This document shows, in pieces, positions 15,978-37,659 of a DNA stretch of 37,659 bases (position 1 is the stretch's first letter; every line of letters begins with the position of its first letter). A program made the translations under genes and the position numbers. Origin of the DNA: a virus; IMG/VR virus record IMGVR_UViG_3300012668_000271. One strand, written 5' to 3'. The notes under the pieces were generated by a model, which ran no database searches, was not told where the DNA came from, and worked only from the letters and a program-made list of their open reading frames with translations.

Positions 15978-16063
15978 ATCGTTGGGGTAGGAACATAAAG
16001 CATAGCTGGAGCTAAACTTTGTAGGATCATGGGACCCAGGTTCCCTGTAGTCGTAATAGACAT
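15978..16063 (-). CDS. major capsid protein, exon 1 (28 codons plus 2 nt)
   Basis: AAAGGAAT RBS, then ATG at 16063. Encodes MSITTTGNLGPMILQSLAPAMLYVPTPT. The unspliced frame stops 3 codons later. Confidence 0.7.
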
Positions 16064-16104
16064 TATTTTAATTCCTTTGTCTAATTACTAGATTTGTTAA
16101 ATCC

Positions 16105-16134
16105 GTGGACGAAGACGTAATACGTCCGTTTTTT
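16105..16134 (+). terminator. hairpin plus T6, plus-strand intrinsic terminator candidate
   Basis: GGACG (16107-16111) pairs with CGTCC (16123-16127) and is followed by GTTTTTT. It lies just beyond the capsid start codon, on the strand antisense to the capsid gene. Confidence 0.4.
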
Positions 16135-16224
16135 AACATATCGATTATGGATGCGAACCCACTACGCGAAACATGATAACAGTCATGTAAACTGAAATTT
16201 AACATATATCATAGTAAATATTTT

Positions 16225-16887
16225 ATGGCACCTAGAAAAACACATGGCATGTGTAAAACAAAAGAATATCAATGTTGGAGAGCATTTAAAAATAGATGTA
16301 TGAATGAAAAAAATGTTCAATTTAAAGATTATGGCGGTCGTGGAATAACTGTGAGTAATGAATGGTTAGAATTTGTGAACTTTTATTCTGACATGGGAAA
16401 TTGTCCTGATGGGTTTGAAATTGATCGTATCGATAATAATAAAGGATATTGCAAAAAAAATTGCAGATGGACTACTAAGAAAATAAATTCTAGGAATAGA
16501 AGATCCACAAAAAAACATAAAATTAATTCTGAAGAAATAGTCCAACAAGTTCTTTTAGAGAAGATTGGATGGACAAAAAATCAATTTAGATGGTTTAAAG
16601 ATCAATATGGCATTGATTGGATTTTAGAAAACTTCAAGAAAGGAACTTTGCCAGAAATAACTAATATACCTGTTGATAAAGATGAAATTATTGGAAAGAC
16701 AATGGGAAAATGGACAGTTCTAAAATTCGTTTCATATAAAAGATGTATAGGAAATACTTATTTATGTAGATGCCATTGTGGGCATGAAAAAGAAGTTAAC
16801 GGATATTATCTTAGATCTGGAAAAAGCACTCAATGCCGCAAATGTGCTTATCAAAAACAAGAGAATAAACCAAATCCAAAAAAATAA
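16225..16887 (+). CDS. free-standing HNH-like (IDRID...NCRW family) endonuclease-type protein
   Basis: KEYQCWRAFKNRC...YGGRGITV...FEIDRIDNNKGYCKKNCRWTT plus a C-terminal Cys cluster CRCHCG...CRKC. Opposite strand to the surrounding late genes. Confidence 0.65.
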   Translation: MAPRKTHGMCKTKEYQCWRAFKNRCMNEKNVQFKDYGGRGITVSNEWLEFVNFYSDMGNCPDGFEIDRIDNNKGYCKKNCRWTTKKINSRNRRSTKKHKINSEEIVQQVLLEKIGWTKNQFRWFKDQYGIDWILENFKKGTLPEITNIPVDKDEIIGKTMGKWTVLKFVSYKRCIGNTYLCRCHCGHEKEVNGYYLRSGKSTQCRKCAYQKQENKPNPKK

Positions 16888-16890
16888 CAT

Positions 16891-16923
16891 ATAGGGGTTC
16901 AAATTCACATTTGCAACCCCTAT
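16891..16923. terminator. 9-bp stem hairpin between convergent genes
   Basis: ATAGGGGTT (16891-16899) pairs with AACCCCTAT (16915-16923) around a 15-nt loop. The flanking T runs are weak. Confidence 0.35.
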
Positions 16924-17005
16924 AATTGAAAATTTATTACTTCTTTTTCTTTTCTTCTGGTTTAGGCATAGGCTTTTTGTCATCTTTATGTTTCATGGTG
17001 TCTCC

Positions 17006-17656
17006 TTATAACCTTAGTGATTTTTTAAGTTCTTGCATTTTTTGATACGCATTTTTTTGACCTGTTTCGCTAAAATCGCTGACGGTTGAATAGGGTGCAG
17101 TGCCGATGCCGGAAGGTTGGTAATATGGGCTTTTTCTATTTAAATCTATTTTTTCTTGAATTGAAGCAATTTTTTGTTCAGGTCTATGAAGACCTAAAGC
17201 TTTAATATTTTGATAAACCAGCTTTTGTCTTTCGAAAGATTCTGGCATAGCTAAAATTGATTCGGCAAGATGCCTATCTTTTTGATATAATTTATCAGCA
17301 TTTTGCATAACATCAGAAAAATCAGAATTATTTTCTAACCACATCTCTTGTTTAATTTCTTCTTTAGCTTTATTTTTTGCTATTTCCATTGCTTTTTGAA
17401 TTTCTGACTGAGTAGATTGACCATACTTAGCGAGTTTCTTTTCTAATTTTTTATGATCAACATAAGGTTCTGAGTTATCATCATCGTCTTGAACTTCTTG
17501 TTTTCTAAAATTCACTTCTTGAACAATTCTTTCAGCTTCTAGAACACGTGCATTAGCTTGATCAAGTTGTTTTTGATACCTTTGTTCCAATGCTCTGAAA
17601 TTAAGTTCTTTGTCTGAAGTTTTCTGCTCTTGACTAACTTGTGCCTGATCTGTCAT
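17006..17656 (-). CDS. scaffolding-like protein (216 aa)
   Basis: Acidic, coiled-coil-type sequence located between the portal and capsid genes. Positional inference. Confidence 0.5.
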   Translation of the reverse strand: MTDQAQVSQEQKTSDKELNFRALEQRYQKQLDQANARVLEAERIVQEVNFRKQEVQDDDDNSEPYVDHKKLEKKLAKYGQSTQSEIQKAMEIAKNKAKEEIKQEMWLENNSDFSDVMQNADKLYQKDRHLAESILAMPESFERQKLVYQNIKALGLHRPEQKIASIQEKIDLNRKSPYYQPSGIGTAPYSTVSDFSETGQKNAYQKMQELKKSLRL

Positions 17657-17729
17657 ATCTATATATTCTCTTGGCGATGGGTTGCTGTACTCTTTATATT
17701 AAACATAAATTTTTAATTATGAGCAATAC

Positions 17730-18266
17730 ATGAAATTAGATAGACTTGACACACATGATAGGTTGTTACATTTTAAGAAAGATCAATCAGATATAATTGC
17801 TCAAGGATGTAATGATTGTTTAAAGAAAAATCCTTTATCATTAGCTTTACAAGAAAGATCACCTTATATTTATATATTTGCTCATCCTAGAACTGCTGAT
17901 GATGGCGTTAATAAACGTATGTTATGGCAACCGAGACTTGGAAAACCTGCAGCTCAAACCAACTCTTATTTATTTAGAGCACAATCTTATTCTGACAATC
18001 TAGAAATTTGCTGGATGATACCTCCTTTTGAAATGTGGAAACAATATGAAAAAGGAAATGTCACAGAAAGCGATCATATTACTTGGAGTATTCATCAATA
18101 TAAAAACAATAGATTAGCATTAGAGTCCCCATATTTTGAAGATTTCAATAATGAGAAAATAGCAGAAGTATTAAAAGATATTGCAAGAGAAATCGACCAA
18201 CAAAAGATGATGGATAAATTATATATAAAACCTAAGGAATTAATTTTACCTATGCAAGAGATTTAG
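17730..18266 (+). CDS. hypothetical protein (178 aa) on the opposite strand within the late operon
   Basis: Clean ORF with no motif I recognise. A possible TTGCTG-17-ATAAAT promoter lies at 17682-17710. Confidence 0.6.
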   Translation: MKLDRLDTHDRLLHFKKDQSDIIAQGCNDCLKKNPLSLALQERSPYIYIFAHPRTADDGVNKRMLWQPRLGKPAAQTNSYLFRAQSYSDNLEICWMIPPFEMWKQYEKGNVTESDHITWSIHQYKNNRLALESPYFEDFNNEKIAEVLKDIAREIDQQKMMDKLYIKPKELILPMQEI

Positions 18267-18417
18267 GCGGCTTACCAATTTTTTTTGATGTCATGGAATT
18301 AATTCCGACATAGCCTCTTTGCATAGATCCAACTTTCTGCTTTATGCCAGAACCGTAAAAATCACCCATACCCATTTTTGAATTAGGTGTATTTTTAATT
18401 GGTTTTTTATTATCCAT
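18250..18417 (-). CDS. small Gly/Lys-rich protein (55 aa), candidate
   Basis: ATG overlaps the upstream stop (TAATG at 18415-18419), with GAGGG upstream. Product is MDNKKPIKNTPNSKMGMGDFYGSGIKQKVGSMQRGYVGINSMTSKKIGKPPKSLA. Below the ORF-track cutoff. Confidence 0.4.
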   Translation of the reverse strand: MDNKKPIKNTPNSKMGMGDFYGSGIKQKVGSMQRGYVGINSMTSKKIGKPPKSLA

Positions 18418-21424: not shown

Positions 21425-22018
21425 TTAACTTTTAAAAATTGCTCTTAAACGTATTCCGCAATCCTTTGAACAGTATTTATTTTTTGCATATTTATTGCTC
21501 ATGAATTTAATTCCACAACGACCGCATACTTTCTCTACATCATCAATTCCTGAGTTTCTACGCCATTTGCTTTTACATGCATTAGAGCAGAATTCTTGAT
21601 GATACATCTTGGTTTCTGCTACTTTTTGACAAACTTTGCAAATTATTTTTATAGGTTCTTTATTAATCCAAGTTAAAATCCCGTGAGCTTTATGCCAAGC
21701 TAAACCTTCTTCACTTGCGTGCCATGCTTTAGTTAATGGGCGAATTTTTTCGCAAAGTAATCTAGATCTTTCTCTGTTTTCTTCCGTGTAATGATGACTT
21801 ATATGTCTAGAAGCTTCTATCAGTTCAATGTTTTCAATCCTATTATCAGATTTATTTTCATTCTTATGATGGATATGATAACCAATTGGTATTTTCCCGT
21901 GTAAACTAATCCACACCCATCTATGTGCTCTAATACGAGGATAATCAGTTGATATCCAATAACCTGTTTTTTTGTCTTGGTAAAACAGTCGACCGAAATG
22001 TTCTTGATGTGTTATCAT
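21425..22018 (-). CDS. HNH endonuclease with C-terminal zinc-ribbon repeats
   Basis: HIHHKNENKSDNRIENIELIEASRHISHH (H-N-H signature), then CKVCQK...FCSNACKSKW and CGRCG...YCSKDCG. Confidence 0.85.
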   Translation of the reverse strand: MITHQEHFGRLFYQDKKTGYWISTDYPRIRAHRWVWISLHGKIPIGYHIHHKNENKSDNRIENIELIEASRHISHHYTEENRERSRLLCEKIRPLTKAWHASEEGLAWHKAHGILTWINKEPIKIICKVCQKVAETKMYHQEFCSNACKSKWRRNSGIDDVEKVCGRCGIKFMSNKYAKNKYCSKDCGIRLRAIFKS

Positions 22019-24390: not shown

Positions 24391-24951
24391 CTATTTTTTC
24401 TTTAATTTAGCTCTAGGAAACTTTAATAGCAAGTCATCAAGTTGATTTTTAAAAGAAGTTGAATCTTCTTCAGGTATTGATATATTAAATTTTACACCTA
24501 AAGATCCTGTATCATCTGAACTTAATTCTTCAGTGTCTTTTGATTCATCATCACCAAGAGTCAAGTGCAATTCATGCATTTCGAATCCATATGAAATTAA
24601 TTCTGGAATATCGTAATCGCAAGTTAAAATATCGAAGTCGAAGGTTCCATAATGCACATTATCTTTAATAATACGTTCTTTCATAATCGTTTCAGATAAG
24701 CCACATTCAACAATACATGGGATTGTCTTTCGTTTAAGTGCTTTTGCTGCTCTTACTCTCTGATTACCTGCATATACTTGAAGTGGTGATCCAATCGCAT
24801 CCTGGTTAACAAGAATAGGCCTGCACCATAAAAATTTAGGATCATCTTGAATAGAAGCTTTAAGCTTATCCATTTGATCTTTTGAGATCTTTCGAGGATT
24901 GCGTTCGAGTAAAATTAAGTCTTTAATGGGAATTTCTTGTATTTCGATCAT
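24391..24951 (-). CDS. ParB N-terminal (nuclease-like) domain protein
   Basis: IPIKDLILLERNPRKIS and VYAGNQRVRAAKAL match the ParB/Srx-fold motifs. Confidence 0.75.
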   Translation of the reverse strand: MIEIQEIPIKDLILLERNPRKISKDQMDKLKASIQDDPKFLWCRPILVNQDAIGSPLQVYAGNQRVRAAKALKRKTIPCIVECGLSETIMKERIIKDNVHYGTFDFDILTCDYDIPELISYGFEMHELHLTLGDDESKDTEELSSDDTGSLGVKFNISIPEEDSTSFKNQLDDLLLKFPRAKLKKK

Positions 24952-24982
24952 TTTAACTCATGTTTTTTATTTTTAAATAATA

Positions 24983-25013
24983 CCTGAAGAAAGAGATGAT
25001 TAATACTCATCTC
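24983..25013 (-). terminator. intrinsic terminator candidate after the par genes
   Basis: GAGATGA-7 nt-TCATCTC (24993-25013), followed on the minus strand by TTTCTTC. Confidence 0.45.
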
Positions 25014-25056
25014 ACCTAATGATAATTCGAATAAGTAATAATAATTTGACAATGTA

Positions 25057-25305
25057 TTATTCATTTTCTGCCCTTTTCAATTTTTCTTGAATTGCTTCCA
25101 ACATCCATCCTGTTTTTGAAATACCAACTCGATCCTCAAGAACTTGGTCAATTTGAGCTAACATTTCTAACTTAATTCTAAGACAAAAATTCATCCATTC
25201 TTTCTTATTTTTTATTTTCTCATTACCCGAAAGTGCATGCGCTGCGTTATAGATTATAGAATCTTTATCGATCTCTAATCTTTCAGTCTTTCTTTTAACG
25301 GTCAT
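25057..25305 (-). CDS. ribbon-helix-helix ParG-like partner of ParA (82 aa)
   Basis: Small gene immediately downstream of parA. The C-terminal ...LRIKLEMLAQIDQVLEDRVGISKTGWMLEAIQEKL fits an RHH fold. Confidence 0.55.
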   Translation of the reverse strand: MTVKRKTERLEIDKDSIIYNAAHALSGNEKIKNKKEWMNFCLRIKLEMLAQIDQVLEDRVGISKTGWMLEAIQEKLKRAENE

Positions 25306-25373
25306 ATATATCCTGCTTGTTAAATACGTGTGTTATGCATGTAAAACGCATGCTAAATGCATGTAAAAAATAT

Positions 25374-26021
25374 CTATCCTACGTTTGAATCATATATTGA
25401 ATTGTAAAGAAAAAGTAATTCTTGAAGTGCTTTTTTATCTTGGATTTTAAGCTCTGAAATACCTAAACCTTCAGTCGCTGCATTAGCAAATGCTTTACGA
25501 TGTCCAATAGGAATTGTGATGCATTTTAAAGAAGGACAATCGGAAATAATTTCTTGGGAATCTTTATTGTCTGTACCACATGAATCCGCTTGATTGATAA
25601 TTGCATAAGCCAAAAGTTTATCATTGCTGACTTTCATTTCAGACAGAAGTTTTTTTAGGCTGCCGATTGTCCATATATCTAATGATCTAGGCTTAAAAGG
25701 AACTAATAAGACGTCAGCAATCTTAAGGGCCGAGCGCTGACTTATTGTATCTCTTCCGCCAACATCGACAATAATATCATCGTAATCTAGAGACATACGT
25801 TTTAATTGCGGGTAAACAGCATCACCACAAAGTTGTATTGTAGACCATTTTGTTTCAATGCCACTATTCTCTCTTTCGTGTGCCCAATCAGATGCACTTC
25901 TTTGTTCATCAGCATCAACAAGCAAAACTTTCTTTCCGCTAGCAGATCTTAATACTGTTAAGTTCGTTGCTATAGTCGTTTTACCACTTCCACCTTTGAT
26001 TCCACCAACAACCACTATCAT
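25374..26021 (-). CDS. parA: ParA/Soj-family partition ATPase (215 aa)
   Basis: Deviant Walker A GGIKGGSGKTT, plus VLLVDADEQRS. GGAG RBS. Confidence 0.9.
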   Translation of the reverse strand: MIVVVGGIKGGSGKTTIATNLTVLRSASGKKVLLVDADEQRSASDWAHERENSGIETKWSTIQLCGDAVYPQLKRMSLDYDDIIVDVGGRDTISQRSALKIADVLLVPFKPRSLDIWTIGSLKKLLSEMKVSNDKLLAYAIINQADSCGTDNKDSQEIISDCPSLKCITIPIGHRKAFANAATEGLGISELKIQDKKALQELLFLYNSIYDSNVG

Positions 26022-26041
26022 ATATAACTCCTATATAGTTT

Positions 26042-26093
26042 ACAGGTATTTAACACGTGAAACATATATTGTTTATACGTGTTAAATACCTGT
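26042..26093. promoter_or_regulatory. perfect 17-bp inverted repeat upstream of parA (operator or centromere candidate)
   Basis: ACAGGTATTTAACACGT (26042-26058) and ACGTGTTAAATACCTGT (26077-26093). Related ATACGTGTTA copies lie at 26075, 26097 and 25324. Confidence 0.6.
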
Positions 26094-26128
26094 TATATAC
26101 GTGTTATATATTTATTTGCCAGTGTTTT

Positions 26129-26335
26129 TTAGCAACAGACGGATTTGATTTTTTCAGAAGAAGGATCGACATATTCATATTTTTTTAAAACTGAATGATA
26201 ATTTTTTTCTTCTAGCATAGCTCGATATGACTCGATTACCGAAAAGCAAAAATTAAATGAGGGAGAGCTTTCTTCATATTGCATAATATTACAACAAGCA
26301 GTTTCAAACATTTGACGTGCGAAGTCAGTTTTCAT
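26129..26335 (-). CDS. hypothetical protein (68 aa)
   Basis: ORF in the early leftward operon. No motif recognised. Confidence 0.45.
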   Translation of the reverse strand: MKTDFARQMFETACCNIMQYEESSPSFNFCFSVIESYRAMLEEKNYHSVLKKYEYVDPSSEKIKSVCC

Positions 26336-26344
26336 AAGATTCCT

Positions 26345-26653
26345 TCAAATTTTTTCTACAATTTTTATCTTGATAGGATATATTTCTTCAACCTGTTTTA
26401 TTTTCAAAGTGCTAATAGGTGTTCGCATTCCTTTAACATCAATGAATTCAATATCTCCATTAGACAAAAAGACAATGAAATCAACCACATACTTAATCTT
26501 ACCTGGAAGTCTAAATGGACATTGCATGAGAAAGAAGATGACATCTCCTGCAAGCTGACGTAATTTCAATTGATTATAAAATTGAGCTTCCAGTTTTGAG
26601 CTGAATTTAATCTCGTCGACTAAACAACGTATTGCACCGAATTTATGTTTCAT
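26345..26653 (-). CDS. DUF1064-type (PD-(D/E)XK-like) nuclease, possible resolvase
   Basis: MKHKFGAIRCLVDEIKFSSKLEAQFYNQL...VVDFIVF...EFIDVKG fits the DUF1064 pattern. Start chosen at the ATG behind GGAG; the ORF track extends to a GTG at 26677. Confidence 0.55.
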   Translation of the reverse strand: MKHKFGAIRCLVDEIKFSSKLEAQFYNQLKLRQLAGDVIFFLMQCPFRLPGKIKYVVDFIVFLSNGDIEFIDVKGMRTPISTLKIKQVEEIYPIKIKIVEKI

Positions 26654-26765
26654 TTGCTTGTCTCCATGCGGTGGCACTTTGGCATTTTTCTCGAGTAGAT
26701 TAATTTTTCATAAATCTAAAAGTCATGTCTACAAAAACTCATTTATGTGTGTATGTTTTTCAAAA

Positions 26766-27029
26766 CTATGCATTTGTGTCAAAATTAATTTCAGGTTTAT
26801 TATGTGGTATTTTTTCAGGAATATAAGGGTAATAGAATTTTGTATCATAATCATTAATGAAAATTCCTGACACACAAATACTTTCACAATTTTTATAATA
26901 ATCTGGGCTTTCAACAACCTTTTGAATGGCTTGATTAATCACCTCAGAATGATCATCCGAATCATCAATGTCAACGCAGTGATAGTTAGTCACTGCGATA
27001 TGAACTCTCCATTTAGGTAATTTTTTCAT
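26766..27029 (-). CDS. hypothetical protein (87 aa)
   Basis: ORF in the early operon. No motif recognised. Confidence 0.45.
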   Translation of the reverse strand: MKKLPKWRVHIAVTNYHCVDIDDSDDHSEVINQAIQKVVESPDYYKNCESICVSGIFINDYDTKFYYPYIPEKIPHNKPEINFDTNA

Positions 27030-27035
27030 GTTATC

Positions 27036-27449
27036 TCAAAATGGAATGTTAGAATCTTCAAAATGTGCAGGGGTCGATTGCGCTTGATTGGTTGAGTTTG
27101 CGTGATCAACACGTGTACTTGTTTGGCTCCATTGGTTTTGATCGTGTAAAGACCCGTTTGCTTGAATTTGAGTAGGTTTGGCTAAGGCATACTTAACATG
27201 GTTTTGAATCAACTTGCGAATTTCTTGAATTTCAAAGTTAGAATCTAGTAAAAAAGCTTCGACATAATCTTCTCTTGAATTTCCTGTTGAATCAATTTTA
27301 TAGCTAGCTTCCGTTGAAAAAAAGCCGTTACCTTCTTTGCTTGGAGTAATTTTATATCTAAAAATATATTTGTTATCGATTTTTACAGAGGCTATGCCTA
27401 AATATTTTTCATTGGGTGTTGGAATAAATCCTACAAATTCTATTGCCAT
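27036..27449 (-). CDS. SSB-like protein: N-terminal domain, Gln/Asn-rich linker and acidic ...DSNIPF tip
   Basis: The C-terminus FEDSNIPF resembles the bacterial SSB tip (D-D-D-I-P-F). About 40 aa of low-complexity linker precede it. Confidence 0.55.
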   Translation of the reverse strand: MAIEFVGFIPTPNEKYLGIASVKIDNKYIFRYKITPSKEGNGFFSTEASYKIDSTGNSREDYVEAFLLDSNFEIQEIRKLIQNHVKYALAKPTQIQANGSLHDQNQWSQTSTRVDHANSTNQAQSTPAHFEDSNIPF

Positions 27450-27461
27450 AATCTTTCCTAA

Positions 27462-27824
27462 TTAATTTTGTATTGGTTGTTTTTTTTCTTTTTTCTTTTT
27501 TTTCAATGAAATCAATGCGTTATTTTTCTGTATTTCTGCATATTTTTCTTGCATGTACTTGGTTCCTTCTTCCGAAAGAGACATCTTAAAATCATCATTT
27601 GTCTTTTTATTTGCAAACGAAACAAATGGGAAATTTACCTTTTTTTTTGATTCAGGATCGTAATTTGTCCTGATAGGCAAAGGAAAAATCCATTTCTTAA
27701 CAAACTTAACCATGATTCCACGCATATCTAAATCCAGATCAGGAAGGTAGATGTGCATGGAATAAACATTCTCTGTTTCTTCTTCTATCTTAAGGGGATA
27801 TACCTCTATAATTTCTATTTTCAT
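27462..27824 (-). CDS. hypothetical protein with Lys-rich tail (120 aa)
   Basis: ORF directly downstream of the initiator gene. Confidence 0.5.
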   Translation of the reverse strand: MKIEIIEVYPLKIEEETENVYSMHIYLPDLDLDMRGIMVKFVKKWIFPLPIRTNYDPESKKKVNFPFVSFANKKTNDDFKMSLSEEGTKYMQEKYAEIQKNNALISLKKKKKEKKQPIQN

Positions 27825-27881
27825 TTAGCACCTTTAAATTTTTAAGACAACTTTTCAATATAACAAAATACGAATTAAATA

Positions 27882-28826
27882 TCAATAAGTTTTGATGTTT
27901 TCCCAATAACGTTTATTTAAAATATCTTGTAAGTAAGCCCAATTATTTGAAATAACGCTTCCTTTTGATTTTTTCTTTTGATTTTGTAGACATAAATATT
28001 CAGAAGCCTTTTCGATGTCCGTGTGTGAAAATTTCTCAGCTATAGATTTTGCGTTGAGCGGTGGACATCCTTTTTGAATGAGCCAATCAAGAGCTTTTTG
28101 TTGAATAACGGGATTATCCGCAGGAAACAGCTTTCTTTTTTTATTTGAAGAAATAGCAGGATCGGCCTTGGCCGTGGGTTGTTGTTCTCTATACAGAGGG
28201 ATATTGTTATATGGGTTCTTTATAGGTTCACCACATGAATCGGTCTCCTGGGGGACAGATTCACCACATGAATCGGTCGGGGGGACAGATTCACCACATG
28301 AATCGGTCTCGATTTGATATTCATTTGGATTGACGCCAACTCCAATCCCGATTCCGATCCCCAAAGATTTAGAATGATTCAATGTCGACATAAACGCATT
28401 ATTCCAACGCCATATATCGAAAATGGTGTAGGTACATAGCTCTCGTTTGCTAGTAATCACATCGTTTTGTTTTTTTGAAATCATTTTTCTTTTTTCAATT
28501 ATCAAAGGATTTCCATCCAATTGATCCATTGACATTAGCAATTCTTTTTTTGCATTTACTATCGATCCAACAGAGCAATTTGCTTTTTCGGCTAATGATT
28601 TCGTTGTGTACCAGCACACATTATTATCACTGGCAATCATTCTAATTATTCTATAAAGCACTTTAGCATAAACGCTTAGTCTCCTTGTCGTAACAACACC
28701 TTTTTTATCAGTAAATTTATAAGTAAGGTAATCAACGATATTAGGAATACGAGTATAAAACTTGGGTTCTGAATTCTGAAAATGATAAGCATACAGTTCG
28801 GAGCGAGAAGAGTTTTGACAAGTCAT
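27882..28826 (-). CDS. replication initiator/organiser-type protein with winged-HTH (314 aa)
   Basis: LYRIIRMIASDNNVCWYTTKSLAEKANCSVGSIVNAKKEL is HTH-like. An internal repeat linker (TDSCGESVP x3, GIGIGIGVGV) separates N- and C-terminal domains. Lies next to an AT-rich non-coding region. Confidence 0.6.
   Translation of the reverse strand: MTCQNSSRSELYAYHFQNSEPKFYTRIPNIVDYLTYKFTDKKGVVTTRRLSVYAKVLYRIIRMIASDNNVCWYTTKSLAEKANCSVGSIVNAKKELLMSMDQLDGNPLIIEKRKMISKKQNDVITSKRELCTYTIFDIWRWNNAFMSTLNHSKSLGIGIGIGVGVNPNEYQIETDSCGESVPPTDSCGESVPQETDSCGEPIKNPYNNIPLYREQQPTAKADPAISSNKKRKLFPADNPVIQQKALDWLIQKGCPPLNAKSIAEKFSHTDIEKASEYLCLQNQKKKSKGSVISNNWAYLQDILNKRYWENIKTY
28227..28308. repeat. three direct repeats TTCACCACATGAATCGGTC (iteron candidates) inside the initiator gene
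   Basis: Copies at 28227, 28260 and 28290. The last two units share 28 identical nt (GGGGACAGATTCACCACATGAATCGGTC) with a 30-nt period. Confidence 0.85.
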
Positions 28827-28847
28827 TTATTTAACCTACAAAATTAA

Positions 28848-28876
28848 TTGAATTAATGTTTGTAAAATGATATAAA
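28848..28876 (+). promoter_or_regulatory. sigma70-like promoter TTGAAT-17-TGaTATAAA (extended -10)
   Basis: TTGAAT at 28848-28853, a 17-nt spacer ending in TGA, TATAAA at 28871-28876. Divergent from the initiator ATG at 28826. Confidence 0.55.
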
Positions 28877-28880
28877 TAAA

Positions 28881-29051
28881 GCACCTACAAAGGTGAATTA
28901 TTTATATATCTTACGTTTCCCGAAAACCTTAAATTTCGGGAATGCGATACGTTTTTTACTGTATCGATAGATTCATAATAGACCCCTCATTTGTCAATGC
29001 ATTCGTTTGAAGGTTTTCATAAATCGAATGAGGGGCCTTTCTTTTTTTTTT
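28881..29051 (+). ncRNA. candidate structured small RNA (about 170 nt), promoter to terminator
   Basis: Hairpins CACCU/AGGUG (28882-28895), UUCCCGAAA/UUUCGGGAA (28917-28942) and CGAUAC/GUAUCG (28945-28966). Terminator CCCCUCAUU/AAUGAGGGG (28983-29035) followed by a C/T tract ending in T10. No ORF. Confidence 0.45.
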
Positions 29052-29206
29052 CACAAGAACTTAAACTACAACTTATGAGCATAAAAATCCCCTTATTTTT
29101 TTTAAACGTATATTTTTAAAAAACAAAATTGAACTTATTAAGGAAATTTAAAATATTTTCTTAACAAATTTATTTTTGTTGAGTTTTTTTTTATGGATAG
29201 GTAAAA

Positions 29207-29300
29207 TCAAGATATCAGTTTTCCATTGATATTTTGAACACCAATCCGTTTTCATAGGACGGACTTCTTTTCAGGCCGGTTGAATCCCGGTCTTTTTTTT
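29207..29300 (+). ncRNA. second candidate small RNA (about 90 nt) ending in a strong terminator
   Basis: Possible promoter TTGAGT-17-TAAAAT (29179-29207). 11-bp hairpin at 29207-29237, hairpin at 29245-29263, and terminator GGCCGG-7 nt-CCGGTC plus T8 (29274-29300). The 5' end is uncertain. Confidence 0.4.
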
Positions 29301-29312
29301 ATGCATAAATAA

Positions 29313-29516
29313 CTACTTTACTTCATCTGCTATCAATTCATTTACTATAGGTTGCACTACTTCTTCAGCAGGTTTAATATACACAGTCGTTAGGAATAAG
29401 TCTGAAGGAAATTCTTTTACGTTGATTCCTTTCACATCTATGAATTGAAGGCATGGAACAATAGCTTTCATATATGTCATAGCTTCTTCATTAACCATTA
29501 ATAAATAATTTTTCAT
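29313..29516 (-). CDS. hypothetical protein (67 aa)
   Basis: ORF with a GGAAAAA RBS-like sequence. No motif recognised. Confidence 0.45.
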   Translation of the reverse strand: MKNYLLMVNEEAMTYMKAIVPCLQFIDVKGINVKEFPSDLFLTTVYIKPAEEVVQPIVNELIADEVK

Positions 29517-29688
29517 GATTTTTCCTTTTTTTCATGATTGATGATGTTTTATTTTTCCATTTCATTCTTTTGAAACATCAAACCAAAAAATTTTATTTAC
29601 ATAGTCTGAAAATACTTCATCAAATCGGTTACTCTAAAGAGTCAATATCTTGTCATGCACACATAATTACTTGTGAACGTCTGATAAT

Positions 29689-29937
29689 TTATATTATGTT
29701 AGCTTTATATCTGAGTAATTGTCGTTCTAGCATATTCGTGGGCTTGAATTCAGATATTTCTACTATTTTGGAAGTAAAGTTTATTTTCACATCGCCTTCA
29801 CAAGCGCTTTCAGGCATGGTGTTTTTTTGACAAGCTTTGCAGAAAAATTTAGCACAAAAATCAACGCGTGTGCGTTCATAAAACTTCTTAGCACTCTCGT
29901 CTTCCAAGTGCTTACATTCATAACATCTATGTTTCAT
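29689..29937 (-). CDS. Cys-rich (zinc-binding type) small protein (82 aa)
   Basis: CYECKH...FCAKFFCKACQ...ACEGD cysteine pairs. Confidence 0.5.
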   Translation of the reverse strand: MKHRCYECKHLEDESAKKFYERTRVDFCAKFFCKACQKNTMPESACEGDVKINFTSKIVEISEFKPTNMLERQLLRYKANII

Positions 29938-30018
29938 TTATCTAATACTTTTGATATTTTCGTTTTTCAAGAATTGGCCGATCTCAATTTTACTAATTTG
30001 CGATTGATAAACTTCGAC

Positions 30019-30360
30019 TCATTTTAACCCCAAAACAAATTTAATAATTGTATCAACCTCATTCATCTCTTTTAAATGAAGGCTTCCAATTTTTGTACCT
30101 ATTCTTGTTTTATCTACGGCTTTGAGCTGATCGATCATTGCCTTCCCAGTCACAAAAGAATGATCAGAAATTTCATATTCAAAGGCGTATACTTTCTTTA
30201 GTTTCGATGTTATAGGTGCAACGATCACTCTATTTGAATTTTCATTCATATCATCATGGGAGCAGATCAATGCGGGTCTTTTCTTTCTTGTCTCAGTGCC
30301 AGTCGAAGGATCAAAATCAACCCAAAATATATCACCGCGTTTAATATTCGTTTGTTTCAT
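30019..30360 (-). CDS. mazF: MazF/PemK-family toxin endoribonuclease
   Basis: IKRGDIFWVDFDPSTGTETRKKRPALI...VIVAPITSK...IDQLKAVDKTRIG matches the PemK/MazF pattern along its full length. Confidence 0.9.
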   Translation of the reverse strand: MKQTNIKRGDIFWVDFDPSTGTETRKKRPALICSHDDMNENSNRVIVAPITSKLKKVYAFEYEISDHSFVTGKAMIDQLKAVDKTRIGTKIGSLHLKEMNEVDTIIKFVLGLK

Positions 30361-30583
30361 CCAAACCGTCCCCTATAAATATATCCCATTCAGCGGCTTC
30401 TTTATTTCTTTCTTCATCAGCAGCAGCTTCTCTATATTGCTTAGCAACACTGCATTTTTTTTCTTCTAATCCTTTCTGAATAAGAATTGAGACAAAACCA
30501 CTTATCCCTCTTCCTGGAATATAGGAATGTAAATCTCTTATCAAATTCTCAGGTAAAGTAATAGTGATTGGAACTTTTCTCAT
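30341..30583 (-). CDS. ribbon-helix-helix antitoxin (80 aa)
   Basis: AAGGAGA sits 4 nt before ATG 30583. MRKVPITITLPENLIRDLHSY...GFVSILIQKGLEE is CopG/RHH-like. Overlaps mazF by 20 nt. The ORF-track start at 30613 lies upstream of the predicted promoter. Confidence 0.75.
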   Translation of the reverse strand: MRKVPITITLPENLIRDLHSYIPGRGISGFVSILIQKGLEEKKCSVAKQYREAAADEERNKEAAEWDIFIGDGLDETNEY

Positions 30584-30608
30584 ATATTCTCCTTGGTCCA
30601 TACTATGT

Positions 30609-30637
30609 ATCATATACGTATATTATATAAAGTACAA
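30609..30637 (-). promoter_or_regulatory. TTGTAC-17-TATGAT promoter overlapping a 12-bp palindrome ATATACGTATAT
   Basis: On the minus strand, -35 at 30637-30632 and -10 at 30614-30609. The perfect palindrome at 30612-30623 spans the -10, as expected for an antitoxin operator. Confidence 0.5.
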
Positions 30638-30669: not shown

Positions 30670-31140
30670 TCATTCAAATAAATCTTTTTGATCCATAAAT
30701 GGAAAGGAGACTTTCAAAGCTTCTCTTACGATCATTGGTATGGATATGGGCTTATTTCTTTTTTTTGTCTCCTCAAGGGCTTTTTTCTGAATCATATTAT
30801 ATTGTGCTATAGGCAGAAGTAAGCAGATAGACTTTGATCCAAACTGTGAATTAATAATTGGTGTTTTTAATCCCATCTGTCTGCCTACTCTTTTTTTCAC
30901 CCAGGCGCATTTATCTTTTTTGAAAATATTACCTTCAATGAGCTCCAATCCGTCGCAGTGAGGAGGTATCGTGCCCATGTCTGTGATGAATGCCCCAAAA
31001 CTTTCTAACCACTCCGGACAAATGGTTATTCCTAGTGCCCCATATTTTGGGTAACTCAAGAATTTGGGGTTCTTCACACATGACTTCATTCTTTGCCATG
31101 CTTGATATTCTTTGGAGTGGCTTGAATTGTGACTCGTCAT
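30670..31140 (-). CDS. degenerate paralogue of the 16225 HNH-like family with an RHH-like C-terminus (156 aa)
   Basis: SKEYQAWQRMKSC...YGALGITICPEWLESFGAFITDMG parallels KEYQCWRAFKNRC...YGGRGITVSNEWLEFVNFYSDMG, but the IDRIDNN..NCRW motif is replaced by LELIEGN...KCAWV. GAGG RBS before ATG 31140. Confidence 0.6.
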   Translation of the reverse strand: MTSHNSSHSKEYQAWQRMKSCVKNPKFLSYPKYGALGITICPEWLESFGAFITDMGTIPPHCDGLELIEGNIFKKDKCAWVKKRVGRQMGLKTPIINSQFGSKSICLLLPIAQYNMIQKKALEETKKRNKPISIPMIVREALKVSFPFMDQKDLFE

Positions 31141-31597
31141 TTTTTACCTCAAAATTAAATTCTAATTGATTTGATTTTAATGGGTATTCTTTCATCACTA
31201 TATCTTTCAGTAGTTTTGACATAGATTTTCCTTTTAACTGCGATATATGCAGTAAATTTACAAAATCTTTGATGGGTAAGGTGAAAGATACATTAATATT
31301 TTTATGAATATTATCTAAAAATTGTATGGGTGTTTGCGGATTATTATCAGGGTTTAGCTTGCTATTTTTGCGATGAGCCTTACCATGACATTTACGACAT
31401 AGCCACATAACATCTAAAGGTTTTCCATAATCAATATGGTGTGACTCAATATCAAAACATATATTTTTGCATGATTCACAAGTACTTGGTTTAATGAGTT
31501 CTCTGTTTCTTATTGCCTTTGATGCAATATTTCTGGAGAATCTGCGTCTTTTAACCTGTAAGATTCTATCGTAATTAATTGTGTATTCAAATTTCAT
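30935..31597 (-). CDS. HNH endonuclease (220-aa ORF; last 206 nt overlap the next gene out of frame)
   Basis: CESCKN...ESHHIDYGKPLDVMWLCRKCHGKAH is a classic HNH/zinc signature. It is followed by an RHH-like VSFTLPIKDFVNLLHISQLKGKSMSKLLKDIV. Confidence 0.75.
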   Translation of the reverse strand: MKFEYTINYDRILQVKRRRFSRNIASKAIRNRELIKPSTCESCKNICFDIESHHIDYGKPLDVMWLCRKCHGKAHRKNSKLNPDNNPQTPIQFLDNIHKNINVSFTLPIKDFVNLLHISQLKGKSMSKLLKDIVMKEYPLKSNQLEFNFEVKNDESQFKPLQRISSMAKNEVMCEEPQILELPKIWGTRNNHLSGVVRKFWGIHHRHGHDTSSLRRIGAH

Positions 31598-31791
31598 AGC
31601 GGTTTTCGTCCGATGTTTTCTGTCGAAGGTTTAACAGCACTTTCTGTCAATTCGATTATTTTATTAGCATATTTAGGGCAAATAGGAATTCCATTTTTAA
31701 CTTTATTTATAACAGGACGTGAGCAACCAACCTTTTTAGCAAAGGAAATCGTTGTCATATTTTTTTGTCTTAGCCATGTTTCCAAATCCAC
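31594..31791 (-). CDS. Cro/XRE-type HTH regulator
   Basis: TTISFAKKVGCSRPVINKVKNG is an HTH. GTG 31791 lies behind GAGG (6-nt spacer). The ORF track begins at TTG 31803. Confidence 0.65.
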   Translation of the reverse strand: MDLETWLRQKNMTTISFAKKVGCSRPVINKVKNGIPICPKYANKIIELTESAVKPSTENIGRKPL

Positions 31792-31808
31792 CTTGCACCT
31801 CAATTAAA

Positions 31809-31838
31809 ATAATATCTTCTTGAATGTTAATTTGTCAA
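31809..31838 (-). promoter_or_regulatory. TTGACA-18-TATTAT early leftward promoter
   Basis: On the minus strand, TTGACA at 31838-31833 and TATTAT at 31814-31809. It overlaps the palindrome CAATATAATATTG (31836-31848) and abuts a plus-strand TATAAT at 31839-31844. Confidence 0.55.
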
Positions 31839-31874
31839 TATAATATTGAAATATAATTCGATTTAAGATAGAAT

Positions 31875-34399: not shown

Positions 34400-35221
34400 A
34401 TGAAAAAAATAATTTTATTTATGCTTACATTTATGTCTTTGGAAGCAAATTATAATGTATGTGTTACCACTATATTTCAAAATGAATCACCCTATCTCAA
34501 AGAATGGATTGATCATCACCTATCTGTTGGTGTGGAACACTTTGTTTTATATAATAACAATAGCACAGATGATTATGAATTAATTTTAAAACCTTACATT
34601 CAAAGAAATATTGTTGATTTGATTGATTGGCCATCAGAAACACAAAAAAATGAATTTGAATATTTTTCTTTTACCGTTCAACCAGGTGCTTATAATCATG
34701 CAATAGAACTCTTAAAAGAAAAAACAAAATGGCTTGCCATTATTGATACCGATGAATTTTTGATTTCAATGAAAGATAAGTCTATTTATTTGACTTTAGA
34801 AAAGTATTTCCCTAAAGCTTCTGGTGTTTGTGTAAATTGGCAATGCTATGGAACATCATCAATTTTTTTAAAGCCGGGACAATCTTTGTTAAAATCATTA
34901 ATATATAAATTACCGTTCGATCATTCTAGAAATTTATATTATAAATCAATTGTTAGGCTTGATTGTGTGGAAAAATGCGTAAATCCCCATTATTGTTTAT
35001 ATTTACCAGGATTTTATCATGTAAATACAAATAATGAAGCTATAGGAATGCAAAATACAGGCGTATATATTGATATATTAAGAATAAATCATTATTGGGC
35101 TCGGGATGAATGGTTTTTACTTAATATAAAAGCCCCCAGATATGAAAAATGGGGGGTAAATCCAGAAGATATTATAAAAGCAGGTCATGATATGAATCAT
35201 GAAATCGATGCATTATTTTGA
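34400..35221 (+). CDS. glycosyltransferase (GT2/GT92-like fold) with N-terminal signal/anchor
   Basis: IFQNESPYLKEWIDHHLSVGVEHFVLYNNNSTDD and AIIDTDEF (DxD) motifs. Hydrophobic N-terminus MKKIILFMLTFMSL. Confidence 0.7.
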   Translation: MKKIILFMLTFMSLEANYNVCVTTIFQNESPYLKEWIDHHLSVGVEHFVLYNNNSTDDYELILKPYIQRNIVDLIDWPSETQKNEFEYFSFTVQPGAYNHAIELLKEKTKWLAIIDTDEFLISMKDKSIYLTLEKYFPKASGVCVNWQCYGTSSIFLKPGQSLLKSLIYKLPFDHSRNLYYKSIVRLDCVEKCVNPHYCLYLPGFYHVNTNNEAIGMQNTGVYIDILRINHYWARDEWFLLNIKAPRYEKWGVNPEDIIKAGHDMNHEIDALF

Positions 35222-35464: not shown

Positions 35465-37099
35465 TTAGACCTCGTATTGACTATTAATTATGTAATCACC
35501 GGTTGTTCGACCAGTTAAACTTTCAATGGTTCTAGCACCTGTTGTTGGAGAAAAAGACTGTACAATATATTGTGAAGTATTATTAACAACAGTGACCAAA
35601 GGAAAAGTATTGGTAAAAATAGATAATTGAGTTGAACCAGCGCTAATTGGAGTATCAGAATTTAAGTTAGCAATATTAGCACTAATGAAAGGAAGTCCCT
35701 GTATTTGAATATTTCCAGTTCCGCCTGTATTACCTGAATAAGCAACATGAATATATAGACTGACTATTCGACCCACACGTTGATATCTACCTATTTGAAT
35801 TGTATAAGTTATTGCTCCGGCTGCAGTTGATCCAACAATAGTAGGAGTGAAAGTTCCTTGAGTAAATACATTTAAGGTATTTGTCCCACCATCAAAAGAA
35901 ATCCCTCCCGTATCAGTATTTCTAGCAACCAATGTTGTAGTATTTATTTTTGAAGAGGTATTGTTAAAAGATATTCCTGAATAGGTTAATGTGCCTGTTC
36001 CTGTAATGGCATTGGTATTTGTACTGTTAACGACAGAATTAGATATGTTATTACTTATTCCATTAATAGAAATTGCCGAAGCAGTATTGGAATTAATATA
36101 TGATGAAACGATAAAATTGCTTCCTGATCCATTTAATGTTAACGAAGTTGTATTCATTAAAGAAGTATCAACGGTTGAGTTTAATATTCCCAATGCTCCA
36201 GTAGAACTTGTCGTGATAGGGATATTCAAAATTGTATAAAAAAGATTTATTGTTCCGGCACTCATTGTGCATGCTGTCGTACTTAAGACTGTATTTGAAA
36301 TGATCGAATAATCAATATTTATTGTACCTGTGCTAGATGAAGAGAACAGTGCAATACCTGTAGTTGCTATGTTACCAAAGCAATTATTTATGCCAATAAT
36401 AGAAAGTGTATTTGATACTGTATGAGAAATACCTGTGTTATTTGAGCAAATTAAATTACAATTATTTACTTGCACTATGGAAGCGAGTGTTCCAGTTACT
36501 GCTAAAAAGAAATCTGCATTCGTCTGTAATTGTATATTACTAATAGAACAAATGCCAGCTGTGTTAAAAGTCGCTTTTCCAATTATCGTAACATTGGGTA
36601 CTAAGCTGTCACCTAAAAAAGCTGTTAAATTCACACCGGCTTTTAATGTTAGATTTTCAGTATAAGTCCCTGGACGAATAAAAATTGTTTGACCATTAAC
36701 GGAAGCTGTTATAGCTGCTTGAATTGTTGTAAAAGTTGCTCTTAGACCGACTACTGCTGAAGGATCAACTACAAATTGAGTTAACCAAGCTCTATCTTCT
36801 AAACTTATAGTACTTGCTGATCCTACTGTATCAAAAACAGGTATTGTGCCAGCTTTTTGACCTAATAGATTAAAGTTATTAGAACCATCTGGATTAAGTT
36901 GACCACCTGTATCACCTGTTAAATGCTGAACAGCTACGGCACCCCCTGTTAAAGAGATTGTCGTATTTCCAACTGTTCCGTCAGCATTAGAAATAGTTAT
37001 TCCAGTTCCTGCTTGAAATGCACGACCTGTAAAAGTCGACGTTCCGTCAAAAACAACATAACCACTTTGGCTAATGTTAAGGTCATTACTTGCAACCAT
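35465..37099 (-). CDS. tailspike/fibre with a pectate-lyase-type beta-helix signature (544 aa)
   Basis: FTTIQAAITASVNGQTIFIRPGTYTENLTLKAGVNL resembles the N-cap of right-handed beta-helix depolymerases. Asn/Ser/Thr-rich repeats. C-terminal GTFTPTIVGS...YQRVGRIV...IQGLPF domain. Confidence 0.65.
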   Translation of the reverse strand: MVASNDLNISQSGYVVFDGTSTFTGRAFQAGTGITISNADGTVGNTTISLTGGAVAVQHLTGDTGGQLNPDGSNNFNLLGQKAGTIPVFDTVGSASTISLEDRAWLTQFVVDPSAVVGLRATFTTIQAAITASVNGQTIFIRPGTYTENLTLKAGVNLTAFLGDSLVPNVTIIGKATFNTAGICSISNIQLQTNADFFLAVTGTLASIVQVNNCNLICSNNTGISHTVSNTLSIIGINNCFGNIATTGIALFSSSSTGTINIDYSIISNTVLSTTACTMSAGTINLFYTILNIPITTSSTGALGILNSTVDTSLMNTTSLTLNGSGSNFIVSSYINSNTASAISINGISNNISNSVVNSTNTNAITGTGTLTYSGISFNNTSSKINTTTLVARNTDTGGISFDGGTNTLNVFTQGTFTPTIVGSTAAGAITYTIQIGRYQRVGRIVSLYIHVAYSGNTGGTGNIQIQGLPFISANIANLNSDTPISAGSTQLSIFTNTFPLVTVVNNTSQYIVQSFSPTTGARTIESLTGRTTGDYIINSQYEV

Positions 37100-37112: not shown

Positions 37113-37613
37113 TTAAACTACGTTAAAGACACCAAGTGATGATTGAGTATGCCAAGTTAAATCTGATGGCTTGAAGATTAATTCGAGAATTGCTCCTCTA
37201 GTACTACTAGATGCTGTACCTGCAATAGCAGATATATTTGCACCTATTTGAATCATTTGACCAGCATTAGCTTGAACAATCACAGTAGAAGCTGTATCGA
37301 CATAAATAATTAAAGTATTTCCAATAACCAAACCAGCTGTTGCAGGCAATGTTACGGTTAATGCAGCATTACAAAAGTAACCATTTTGAATCGCAGCATT
37401 AAAACTTACGTTCTGCTCAGACCAAGCAAAACCTTCATTTTTTATTGTTACAACAAGGGTATTGCCTGAAGCTGATGTTGCAGTTCCTACACCACCAAAT
37501 ACATTTAATATGTTCAATGCAGGAACAGCAGTCCCCGCATCGGTAACATAACTAGTTGCAACTGTTGGAGGAACTGGACCAACTGCCGAATTGATTTGAC
37601 CTGCTTGACTCAA
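37113..37613 (-). CDS. fibre-associated virion protein (166 aa), TTG start
   Basis: TTG lies behind AGGTG, which overlaps the stop of the 39..371 gene across the circular junction. Gly/Thr/Ala-rich beta-type sequence. Confidence 0.55.
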
Positions 37614-37659
37614 AATTCACCTATGTTTGTATGATAAATTGAGAAACTAAATAGACTAA
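37583..37659. repeat. terminal direct repeat copy 2
   Basis: Identical to nt 1-77. Confidence 0.95.

Follow-up and report, generated by a model that had tools for sequence, protein, structure and literature searches.

A stretch of viral DNA of 37,659 nucleotides (IMG/VR record IMGVR_UViG_3300012668_000271), to which in its entirety we refer as the window, represents, complete and circular, the genome of a tailed phage that has a P22-type portal and is uncultured; judging from its gene content, this phage probably can persist after infection as a low-copy circular plasmid prophage instead of integrating. This reading is drawn from the combination of a par operon with its repeats, a toxin-antitoxin (TA) pair with its operator, an iteron-bearing replicon and the lack of a recombinase, as well as from a lone glycosyltransferase gene, the unchanged recovery of the genome after four years in a bulk metagenome and the precedent of the Burkholderia phage KS14. 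Virion and packaging genes (the capsid gene being interrupted) lie on one replicon with plasmid-type maintenance genes, and machinery for integration was not found in the window. Phage-plasmids transfer genes by two routes, the viral and the plasmid one, and environmental data underestimate their number; the element analyzed here is a clean uncultured example of them and not a new kind of element.

The first 77 bases of the window are identical to its last 77 (1-77 = 37583-37659), and the assembly is therefore circular, with a unique genome of 37,582 bp and a GC content of ~34%. By its sequence the window is scaffold ML_43_489, which belongs to group G10, the 'putative phage-plasmids' of cryoconite viromes, and is listed with 37,582 bp and 69.7x coverage in Table 5 of Bellas, Anesio & Barker 2015 (Front Microbiol 6:656; PMC4490671). 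The supplementary gene table of that paper agrees with the window gene for gene once rotated by 15,859 nt, such that ParF at 9515-10162 corresponds to window 25374-26021 and MazF at 14160-14501 to window 30019-30360, with the coordinates of the antitoxin, the ParB-like nuclease and the terminase large subunit (TerL) likewise in agreement. From ParA, ParB, the PemK toxin, the antitoxin and the terminase those authors inferred a phage-plasmid, and the scaffold is again given as "Phage-plasmid" in Supplementary Data 1 of Bellas et al. 2020 (Nat Commun 11:4403; PMC7468147), where it is also recorded as "Identical - 100%" in a 2013 bulk metagenome of the same glacier, four years on. Since the claim was published for exactly this scaffold, it was already known in 2015; we take it to be correct, and like those authors we infer it from sequence. 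Both papers called the initiator gene and the 82-aa ParA partner described below 'hypothetical', counted the ParB-like nuclease as a partition gene, which we do not, and gave no description of iterons, parA repeats, operators or the wider family. New here are the assignment of the initiator and its iterons, the 82-aa partner of ParA in place of the ParB_N protein, the repeats at parA, a candidate antisense RNA and a census of the family.

The source of the genome is a <0.2 um virus-size fraction, at ~70x coverage. SRR8842249 is the 2009 virus-fraction metagenome (ML09) of cryoconite holes on Midtre Lovenbreen, Svalbard (PMC7468147 Table 1), and the exact ParA protein was found on a 37,612-bp contig assembled from it. 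Additionally, a 4.7-kb contig from ERR4837106 that carries the same ParA is 99.6% identical, and the initiator-like protein of the window is on record under the GenBank WGS prefix LDNP01. A megablast search with 17.7 kb of the window against 50,697 phage and 72,556 plasmid records recovered no near-identity match; a scan of the window found no tRNA genes, and an Rfam scan of it gave no match at gathering thresholds. Families of TerL, P22-type portal, major head, tail and tail-fibre proteins are all present (Pfam and PHROGs).

Partition, replication and toxin-antitoxin genes

The region around parA contains the following features:

25374-26021, minus strand: parA, coding for a 215-aa small Walker-type partition ATPase of the ParF-like, type Ib kind
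25057-25305, minus strand: partner gene, coding for an 82-aa ParG-like candidate centromere-binding partner of ParA
26042-26112, no strand: centromere/operator-like repeat cluster directly upstream of parA, with four copies of a 14-mer
25306-25373, no strand: intergenic stretch between parA and the partner gene, with a fifth 14-mer, two TTACATGCAT direct repeats and a short hairpin
24391-24951, minus strand: ParB_N protein, 186 aa, a stand-alone ParB-like nuclease/CTPase-type N-terminal domain; adjoins the small terminase gene

An initial annotation of the window had proposed here a small ParA ATPase with a ribbon-helix-helix (RHH) ParG-like partner and flanking repeat motifs. The ATPase is confirmed by matches in Pfam (CbiA, 1.2e-14; AAA_31, 7e-15), in NCBIfam (ParA_partition, NF041546; 1.8e-40 over model positions 2-199 of 203, below the equivalog cut-off) and in PHROGs (ParA-like, 1e-35), with ParF of TP228 (4dzz) as the top match among solved structures (E 5e-13). 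It displays a deviant Walker A motif, KGGSGKTT, at residues 9-16 and no N-terminal helix-turn-helix (HTH)/DNA-binding domain, and in this has the hallmarks of type Ib ATPases (~200-215 aa, KGGxxK[ST], no N-terminal DNA-binding domain). Its closest annotated relatives, with 42-48% identity, reside on plasmids of many phyla, and it is only 31-36% identical to the ParAs of phages.

The gene for the 82-aa protein has homologues in Cardinium pCher and a Deinococcus plasmid, where these likewise come as a small gene behind ParA, and it follows ParA in 14 of the 22 ParA-bearing IMG/VR contigs (tblastn). The N-terminal tail of the protein is variable, while the C-terminal RxGIxKTGWxLEAI is invariant and the C-terminal half nearly so. 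The conserved, syntenic partner of the earlier proposal is thus upheld. Its RHH fold was not confirmed: searches with the single sequence and with a profile against Pfam, PHROGs, NCBIfam and PDB gave no match and no RHH family, and the AlphaFold2 (AF2) monomer model, which has two C-terminal helices and no strand, is too poor for searching (pLDDT 58). From its sequence, an RHH fold is plausible for this protein.

The flanking repeats are borne out. With up to 3 mismatches allowed, the 14-mer GGTATTTAACACGT has 10 copies in the window against 3.35 expected, a count reached in 0 of 100 shuffles, and five of the 10 are at parA (four at 26045-26112 and one at 25315-25328). Of the four upstream copies, three are in direct orientation at intervals of 11 nt and the fourth is inverted, and the same cluster contains a perfect 17-nt inverted repeat (26042-26058 / 26077-26093). 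In relatives, the corresponding position upstream of parA is occupied by palindromes or 11-nt tandem repeats of their own. The repeats at parA are hence a candidate centromere/operator. By homology with ParF/ParG, the 82-aa protein would bind the repeats upstream of parA and the intergenic copy, both to build a partition complex and to autoregulate the operon, and the nucleoid-bound ATP form of the ParF-like ATPase would move copies of the element apart.

The neighboring ParB_N protein was considered as the partner of ParA and rejected, because it consists of an N-terminal domain only, resembles methyltransferases and is present in genomes without ParA. Its match to Pfam ParB_N (4.6e-8) covers only residues 3-98, it scores 23 bits against the 58-bit cut-off of parB_part (TIGR00180), and its best PHROG is the N-terminus of DNA methyltransferases. 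Among the loci of relatives (which are designated by L and a number), it occurs beside terminase genes in L003, L028 and L029, all of which are ParA-less, and apart from ParA in L057. Thus, it probably lies outside the partition cassette, and a full ParB (with CTPase, HTH and dimerisation domains) that is partnered with ParA, as in type Ia/chromosomal ParABS systems, was not found in the window. In a distant ParA-bearing group (L037, L038, L040, L041, L043, L046 and L047), we also observed tRNA-like candidates ~70-160 nt upstream of parA; they lie just upstream of the parA promoter/operator palindrome, and one of them starts GGGTTATTAGTGCAGCGGTAG and ends in a TTCAACTCC T-loop.

The predicted replicon is located on the same strand as the partition genes and comprises, with its neighbors:

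27882-28826, minus strand: lambda-O-like replication initiator candidate, 314 aa
28288-28304, 28258-28274 and 28225-28241, minus strand: three iterons, each a 17-bp dyad GATTCA-TGTGG-TGAAYC, with spacing of 30 and 33 nt
28827-29312, no strand: structured intergenic region upstream of the initiator, 486 nt, 27% GC, with strong hairpins
29214-29300, plus strand: candidate antisense small RNA of three hairpins and a U8 tract, behind a promoter-like site (29179-29207)
27036-27449, minus strand: possible SSB-like protein, 137 aa, whose C-terminus EDSNIPF resembles the acidic SSB tip
26345-26677, minus strand: DUF1064 protein (Holliday-junction resolvase in PHROGs), part of the replication/recombination block

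The initiator candidate matches Pfam HTH_36 at 7.9e-5 (22.8 bits, below the 25-bit cut-off) and, weakly, a DnaD-like PHROG. It has no match to Pfam Phage_rep_O and none in tblastn searches of annotated plasmid and phage collections; metagenomes yielded 61 homologues. An AlphaFold model based on an alignment of 38 homologues consists of two confident domains, a winged-helix one at the N-terminus (residues 1-155) and a helical one at the C-terminus (239-310), joined by a disordered linker (160-233), which is the site of the iterons. Foldseek searches with this model recovered weak winged-helix matches (E at least 0.02), RepE-type initiators among them, which therefore support a DNA-binding domain and assign no family. 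A PDB profile search with the 38 homologues produced only a chance UBA-like match.

More telling is the DNA within the gene. Three repeats lie inside it (28217-28308) as the 17-bp dyads listed above, the 30/33-nt spacing of which is conserved in L028 and L052, and they are followed by a stretch of lower GC (27-33%) at 28205-28235; by analogy, we propose the iterons and this stretch as the origin. All of the 38 homologues have three copies of a short peptide in the linker, which are 77% identical within a protein and 44% identical between proteins, below the 54% of the flanking domain; the repeats thus evolve in concert. In L140 (1072-1170), the same 17-mer is found three times with the same spacing and in inverted orientation (GATTCACCACATGAATC), which turns the linker peptide DSCGES into DSPHES. 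The iteron is therefore selected as DNA, with the peptide as its passenger, and the initiator family thus provides a case of a DNA site dictating protein sequence. Dyad iterons that lie within the initiator's own coding sequence and are selected as DNA are the mark of lambda O-type replicons, and the assignment of initiator and origin by analogy with lambda O/ori appears well-founded. In the initial annotation, a replication initiator with internal iteron-like repeats and an adjacent AT-rich structured region had been part of a plasmid-type maintenance kit. The repeats, as three dyads, and the 27% GC region with its hairpins are indeed there; the initiator, on the other hand, is the phage family's own lambda-O-like replicon and not a plasmid-type add-on, with 61 homologues and with ParA-less relatives that share it (of the loci inspected, L028, L029 and L052 have the initiator and no ParA).

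On the plus strand, which is antisense to the initiator, the intergenic region has hairpins with T-runs at 28980-29052, 29245-29263 and 29273-29293, and the candidate small RNA folds with -29.1 kcal/mol (RNAfold; z -4.8). Upstream of the initiator homologue of L028, L029 and L052/L053 there is likewise a terminator on the antisense strand and none on the sense strand. A permissive Rfam scan of 28700-29450 returned no family and chance-level matches at most. Together these features suggest that an RNA comparable to oop or to a countertranscript is encoded upstream of the initiator gene. In mechanistic terms, the winged-helix 314-aa protein would bind the three 17-bp dyad iterons in its own gene, probably as a dimer, open the adjacent lower-GC stretch and bring in the replication proteins of the host, in the manner of lambda O at ori-lambda; how much initiator is made may be controlled by an antisense RNA transcribed from the structured upstream region. 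The re-analysis thereby yields a workable map of the likely mini-replicon, on which the initiator and the iterons inside its gene, the likely partner of ParA and the centromere-like repeats are placed. Of the remaining genes of this block, the 137-aa protein, encoded two genes downstream of the initiator, has no family match in Pfam, PHROGs or NCBIfam, and an SSB-like identity is possible for it. Neither Pfam nor PHROGs revealed a P, DnaC or DnaB-like gene in the window; relatives have IstB/DnaC-like genes.

The TA pair and the head of the early operon are made up of:

30019-30360, minus strand: MazF/PemK-family toxin (endoribonuclease), with a full-length match to PemK_toxin (PF02452), 3e-30
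30341-30583, minus strand: antitoxin, RHH/CopG-like, with a 20-nt overlap with the toxin; the listed open reading frame (ORF) extends to 30613
30601-30634, no strand: imperfect palindrome with 17-nt arms, 82% complementary, just upstream of the ribosome-binding site of the antitoxin gene
31594-31803, minus strand: Cro-like small HTH protein (HTH_3, 2.5e-3; PHROG 'transcriptional repressor', 6e-4)
31809-31874, no strand: divergent early promoter region, based on consensus matches only

Further matches of the toxin are to NCBIfam MazF (7e-17, below the equivalog cut-off) and to a MazF-like PHROG (4e-29). The antitoxin probably starts with the ATG at 30583, which is preceded by AAGGAG. Its matches are sub-threshold, both to RHH_5 (9e-4) and to an NCBIfam MazE-family antitoxin (7e-5; 23 vs 65 bits), and from its sequence it looks to be of the RHH type rather than the AbrB type. 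The palindrome at 30601-30634 is a candidate autoregulatory operator of the pair. The previously proposed MazF/RHH pair with its own palindromic operator is hence upheld as regards the toxin, the overlapping antitoxin gene and the palindrome, and is left with a sub-threshold RHH_5 match as regards the class of the antitoxin. We envisage that a labile antitoxin would repress its own operon at the palindrome and neutralise MazF, and that cells losing the element would be inhibited by the stable toxin. The Cro-like gene heads a leftward early operon that holds the TA pair, the replicon and the par genes; the promoter-like sites next to it are TTGACA-18-TATTAT on the minus strand (11/12) and TTGAAA-17-TAGAAT on the plus strand, and a palindrome with 12-nt arms (31830-31854) overlaps both -35 boxes.

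Recombinases, relatives and lifestyle

We scanned all 105 ORFs of at least 50 aa in the six frames of the window with Pfam (E<=0.01), and nearly all of them with PHROGs. No Phage_integrase, Resolvase, transposase or protelomerase family was found with Pfam, and no integrase with PHROGs, in agreement with the initial annotation, which had recognised no such gene; a tblastn search of the window with the recombinases of relatives was empty even at E<=10. The same holds for the Xis-like HTH gene (2265-2516, plus strand), which had been noted for its missing integrase partner: it matches Pfam HTH_17 at 4.2e-6 in a pooled scan of 75 ORFs including this gene and, when searched directly, the excisionase-family model TIGR01764 weakly (8.5e-4), and none of the 105 ORFs codes for an integrase. 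The gene is isolated between tail genes, against the direction of its neighbors, and is a possible regulator without a partner.

It would be improbable in view of these results that the phage is temperate and integrates, be it by a divergent integrase (e.g. 2845-4131, 4128-5372 or 35465-37099) or through host XerCD at a dif-like site, as CTX-phi does. Many ORFs of the window are without a family match, and some ParA-bearing relatives possess an XerC/D-like recombinase, such that ParA and recombination are compatible; moreover, two contigs with ParA homologues reach 67.8 and 74.3 kb. Against this, few domains are as readily detected as those of tyrosine and serine recombinases, the large family-less ORFs sit in the tail/tail-fibre block, and of several hundred related contigs none exceeds ~42 kb or is flanked by host DNA, apart from those two exceptions.

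The census behind this last statement draws on the structural module (TerL, P22-type portal, capsid and tail), which is syntenic in dozens of related genomes with 50-96% protein identity, and on the replicon and ParA. TerL relatives in JGI metagenomes number 372, and the best 80 of them lead to 21 contigs of at least 30 kb, the longest of 41.8 kb. Initiator homologues are found on 16 contigs of at least 30 kb, all of them of 34-40.7 kb. For the 120 closest ParA homologues (58-72% identity), 36 of the 39 contigs of at least 30 kb measure 35.8-41.2 kb; those above the family size are JAWVHB010000617.1 (74,336 bp; L054) and JAWVGW010000504.1 (67,760 bp; L057), in each of which the ~20 kb examined contained phage genes throughout. 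These two could be concatemers, chimeras or integrated copies. Among species-representative genomes, relatives occur only on contigs of at most 40 kb from metagenome-assembled genomes (MAGs), in bins of inconsistent taxonomy. Host flanks are essentially never assembled with these elements, which fits a plasmid state and equally fits lytic phages. The element thus belongs to a very large family for which, the two contigs of >42 kb apart, no integrated member has been seen, and whose members may or may not carry the par cassette.

The bins do not identify a host, and we rejected them for this purpose: they span Bacteroidota, Alphaproteobacteria, Thaumarchaeota and Chlamydiota, and mis-binning is likely because these phyla are unrelated. 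Two of the 10 matches in the genome collection are in chlamydial MAGs, namely L017 (JBPQHD010000031.1, Parachlamydiaceae) and L019 (JAGXTH010000002.1, Simkania), the latter being a genome-length standalone contig of 39,969 bp. A chlamydial host or one among amoeba symbionts is conceivable and would be notable, as to our knowledge no tailed chlamydial phage is known; mis-binning is likely here too.

Closer inspection of the family centered on 32 TerL-family relatives with at least 8 kb of sequence upstream of TerL, 29 of which were scanned with Pfam. Most close relatives, whose early regions are mosaic, lack the ParA cassette, the TA pair and even the initiator. The 29 early regions contain no tyrosine integrase and one small resolvase; of three ParA-less loci with an initiator and a fully visible early region, L028 has only a small resolvase, and L029 and L052 have no recombinase. 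Absence of an integrase is therefore family-wide and not particular to ML_43_489, and does not in itself indicate that ParA took the place of one. More distant phages of ~39 kb code for a ParA of 63-64% identity together with a 303-aa XerC/D-like recombinase. Such enzymes (Phage_int_SAM_1 + Phage_integrase) are encoded at L030:5250-6149, L031:4630-5496, L049:4248-5147, L050:3-302 and L055:10974-11885, the copy in L055 having 303 aa, and are mutually 55-61% identical; small resolvases occur in other relatives (L012, L028 and L057-L059), and neither type of enzyme was found in the window. The XerC/D-like enzyme could serve multimer resolution, as Cre does in P1, or integration. The idea that ParA and integrase are mutually exclusive alternatives, as in the cluster A mycobacteriophages, is unsupported, given ParA-less relatives that also lack an integrase and ParA-bearing phages that have the XerC/D-like recombinase.

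A different account of the same genes is that the phage is virulent or has a transient carrier state. The lambda-like replicon would then act in productive infection only, and par and MazEF would be accessory 'moron' genes, with roles in the placement of DNA during replication or packaging, in superinfection exclusion or anti-defence, or in competition of the abortive-infection type. We regard this as possible, if on balance doubtful. What speaks for it also weighs against persistence as a plasmid prophage. No CI-type repressor, antirepressor or other lysogeny switch or module was recognised among the window ORFs, the regulators found being the weak Cro-like HTH protein and the lone HTH_17 gene; given this lack of a recognised repressor, the term "plasmid prophage" denotes a hypothesis. 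The family backbone is devoid of integrases and mostly of ParA, which is present in only 4 of the 32 family loci, and, with L029 and L052 having neither ParA nor integrase, that backbone may be virulent. Homing-endonuclease-type genes, which are commoner in virulent phages, are many (see below), coverage in the virome is high, and standalone contigs of genome size, as all but the exceptions are, are also expected of a lytic phage. Further points are set against the plasmid prophage itself. No multimer-resolution recombinase was found in the window, while several ParA-bearing relatives have one. Finally, the initiator was assigned from weak HTH matches and the logic of its repeats, with no homologue in the annotated plasmid and phage collections, and the RHH fold of the partner and the family of the antitoxin are both drawn from sub-threshold matches or none.

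A virulent lifestyle, in turn, sits poorly with a complete par operon with operator-like or centromere-like repeats that is conserved on >100 related contigs and for which no function in lytic growth has been established. The TA pair with its operator, the low-GC glycosyltransferase and the outer-membrane-protein genes present in relatives look like genes expressed in a lysogen. The glycosyltransferase, by its sequence, looks like a gene of the lysogenic-conversion kind:

34400-35221, plus strand: GT92/GT2 glycosyltransferase, isolated and against its neighbors, in the lowest-GC part of the genome (27%)

Furthermore, KS14, the one cultured precedent that was checked, has the same ParA layout and is a plasmid prophage, and the genome was 100% identical after four years in the bulk metagenome. 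Episomal maintenance, which the initial annotation had put in place of integration, accordingly stands as the best-supported and the published reading, stripped of its argument from the missing integrase, which the whole family lacks, and set beside the fact that no repressor was recognised.

A more specific and more tentative proposition concerns the cassette itself. In L033, the par cassette is found elsewhere, on the opposite strand among structural genes, and the difference in position among genomes indicates an autonomous, optional module. The ParF/ParG-like cassette might, although we think it rather unlikely, be a self-contained mobile 'lifestyle module' that turns members of a very widespread family of 36-42 kb phages of soil and cryosphere, with a P22-type portal, a lambda-O-like replicon and no tyrosine integrase found, into plasmid prophages. 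The backbone alone would then be virulent or in a carrier state, ~1/8 of the genomes would have gained the cassette, at different positions, and copy number would be set by the oop-like antisense RNA together with co-evolving iterons that flip in orientation. If true, the family would constitute a natural series for the transition from virulent phage to plasmid prophage in uncultured phages.

Capsid region and homing endonucleases

For a genome of its size, the window is unusually dense in homing-endonuclease-type genes. About six such genes occur in the 37.6 kb (one LAGLIDADG, several HNH, AP2-like and HNH_3), and three of them are on the opposite strand within the structural module:

14237-15148 (+), 16225-16887 (+), 17730-18266 (+), 21425-22018 (-), 30670-31140 (-) and 30935-31597 (-): homing-endonuclease-type genes

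The probable major capsid gene, which in L004 is a single 326-aa ORF (L004:16833-17813), is in four pieces in the window, all on the minus strand (16063-15977, 15729-15520, 15505-15338 and 14187-13642), separated by a gap of ~250 nt, a change of frame and an insertion of ~1,150 nt. The large insertion holds the LAGLIDADG endonuclease gene on the opposite strand, and homologues of this gene are present in the same region of L003, L005, L016 and L033. Group I and group II intron models of Rfam, including a permissive scan of 13500-18400, did not match the capsid region.

The interrupted capsid gene, along with a caveat left open in PMC4490671, is what would favor yet another explanation, according to which the element is a plasmid with captured phage genes, or else a defective phage or producer of gene-transfer-agent-like particles. 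We consider this most improbable, as the structural module is complete and syntenic with 50-96% protein identity over dozens of genomes, and the DNA came from the <0.2 um fraction at ~70x and was stable for four years.

Comparison with known systems

Neither its backbone genes nor its DNA place the element in a described phage-plasmid group (P1, N15, SSU5, KS14-like or others). P1, with ParA/ParB/parS and Phd/Doc, follows the same logic of a low-copy plasmid prophage with partition and TA addiction. Extrachromosomal prophages of cluster A mycobacteriophages carry parABS (PMC7157519). Both P1 and cluster A have a type Ia ParA with a true ParB and parS, whereas the system of the window is type Ib-like; P1 further relies on a dedicated RepA plasmid replicon and on Cre/lox dimer resolution, in contrast to the phage-type replicon of the window. 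No sequence relationship to P1 or cluster A was detected, nor a DNA match in the phage or plasmid collections.

For the replicon, the closest parallel is lambda. Like lambda O, the initiator candidate is built of a DNA-binding domain at the N-terminus and a C-terminal domain with a flexible linker between them, and dyad iterons lie in the DNA that codes for the linker; also as in lambda, an AT-richer stretch follows the iterons, a Cro-like gene heads the early operon, and the candidate antisense RNA is placed like oop. It differs from lambda O in having three iterons instead of four, a modest AT-rich stretch and no Phage_rep_O match. A lambda O/ori replicon can run as a plasmid, as lambda-dv does.

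For the partition genes, the ParF-ParG-parH system of TP228 has the same order as the window, with the ATPase followed by a protein of ~80 aa and with repeats upstream of the operon. TP228 ParF has 206 aa against 215 aa of the window ParA, and the match between them is distant (E 5e-13). The parH site of TP228 is an array of tetramer boxes, and the repeat of the window differs from it in being a 14-mer with 11-nt phasing and an inverted copy.

The closest precedent for the element as a whole is KS14, a P2-like tailed phage of Burkholderia of ~32 kb, with a 216-aa ParA and a small ORF (Lynch et al. 2010, BMC Genomics 11:599). Its ParA is 31% identical to that of the window, an initiator gene is nearby, and it is without a tyrosine integrase. 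The two phages differ in that KS14 is a P2-type myovirus, the window phage having a P22-type portal, and in that KS14 has a RepB-type initiator and a serine recombinase and no TA pair reported in the region seen. The same layout of a tailed phage with a small ParA has, in KS14, been shown by plasmid extraction to persist as a plasmid prophage (Lynch et al. 2010, BMC Genomics 11:599).

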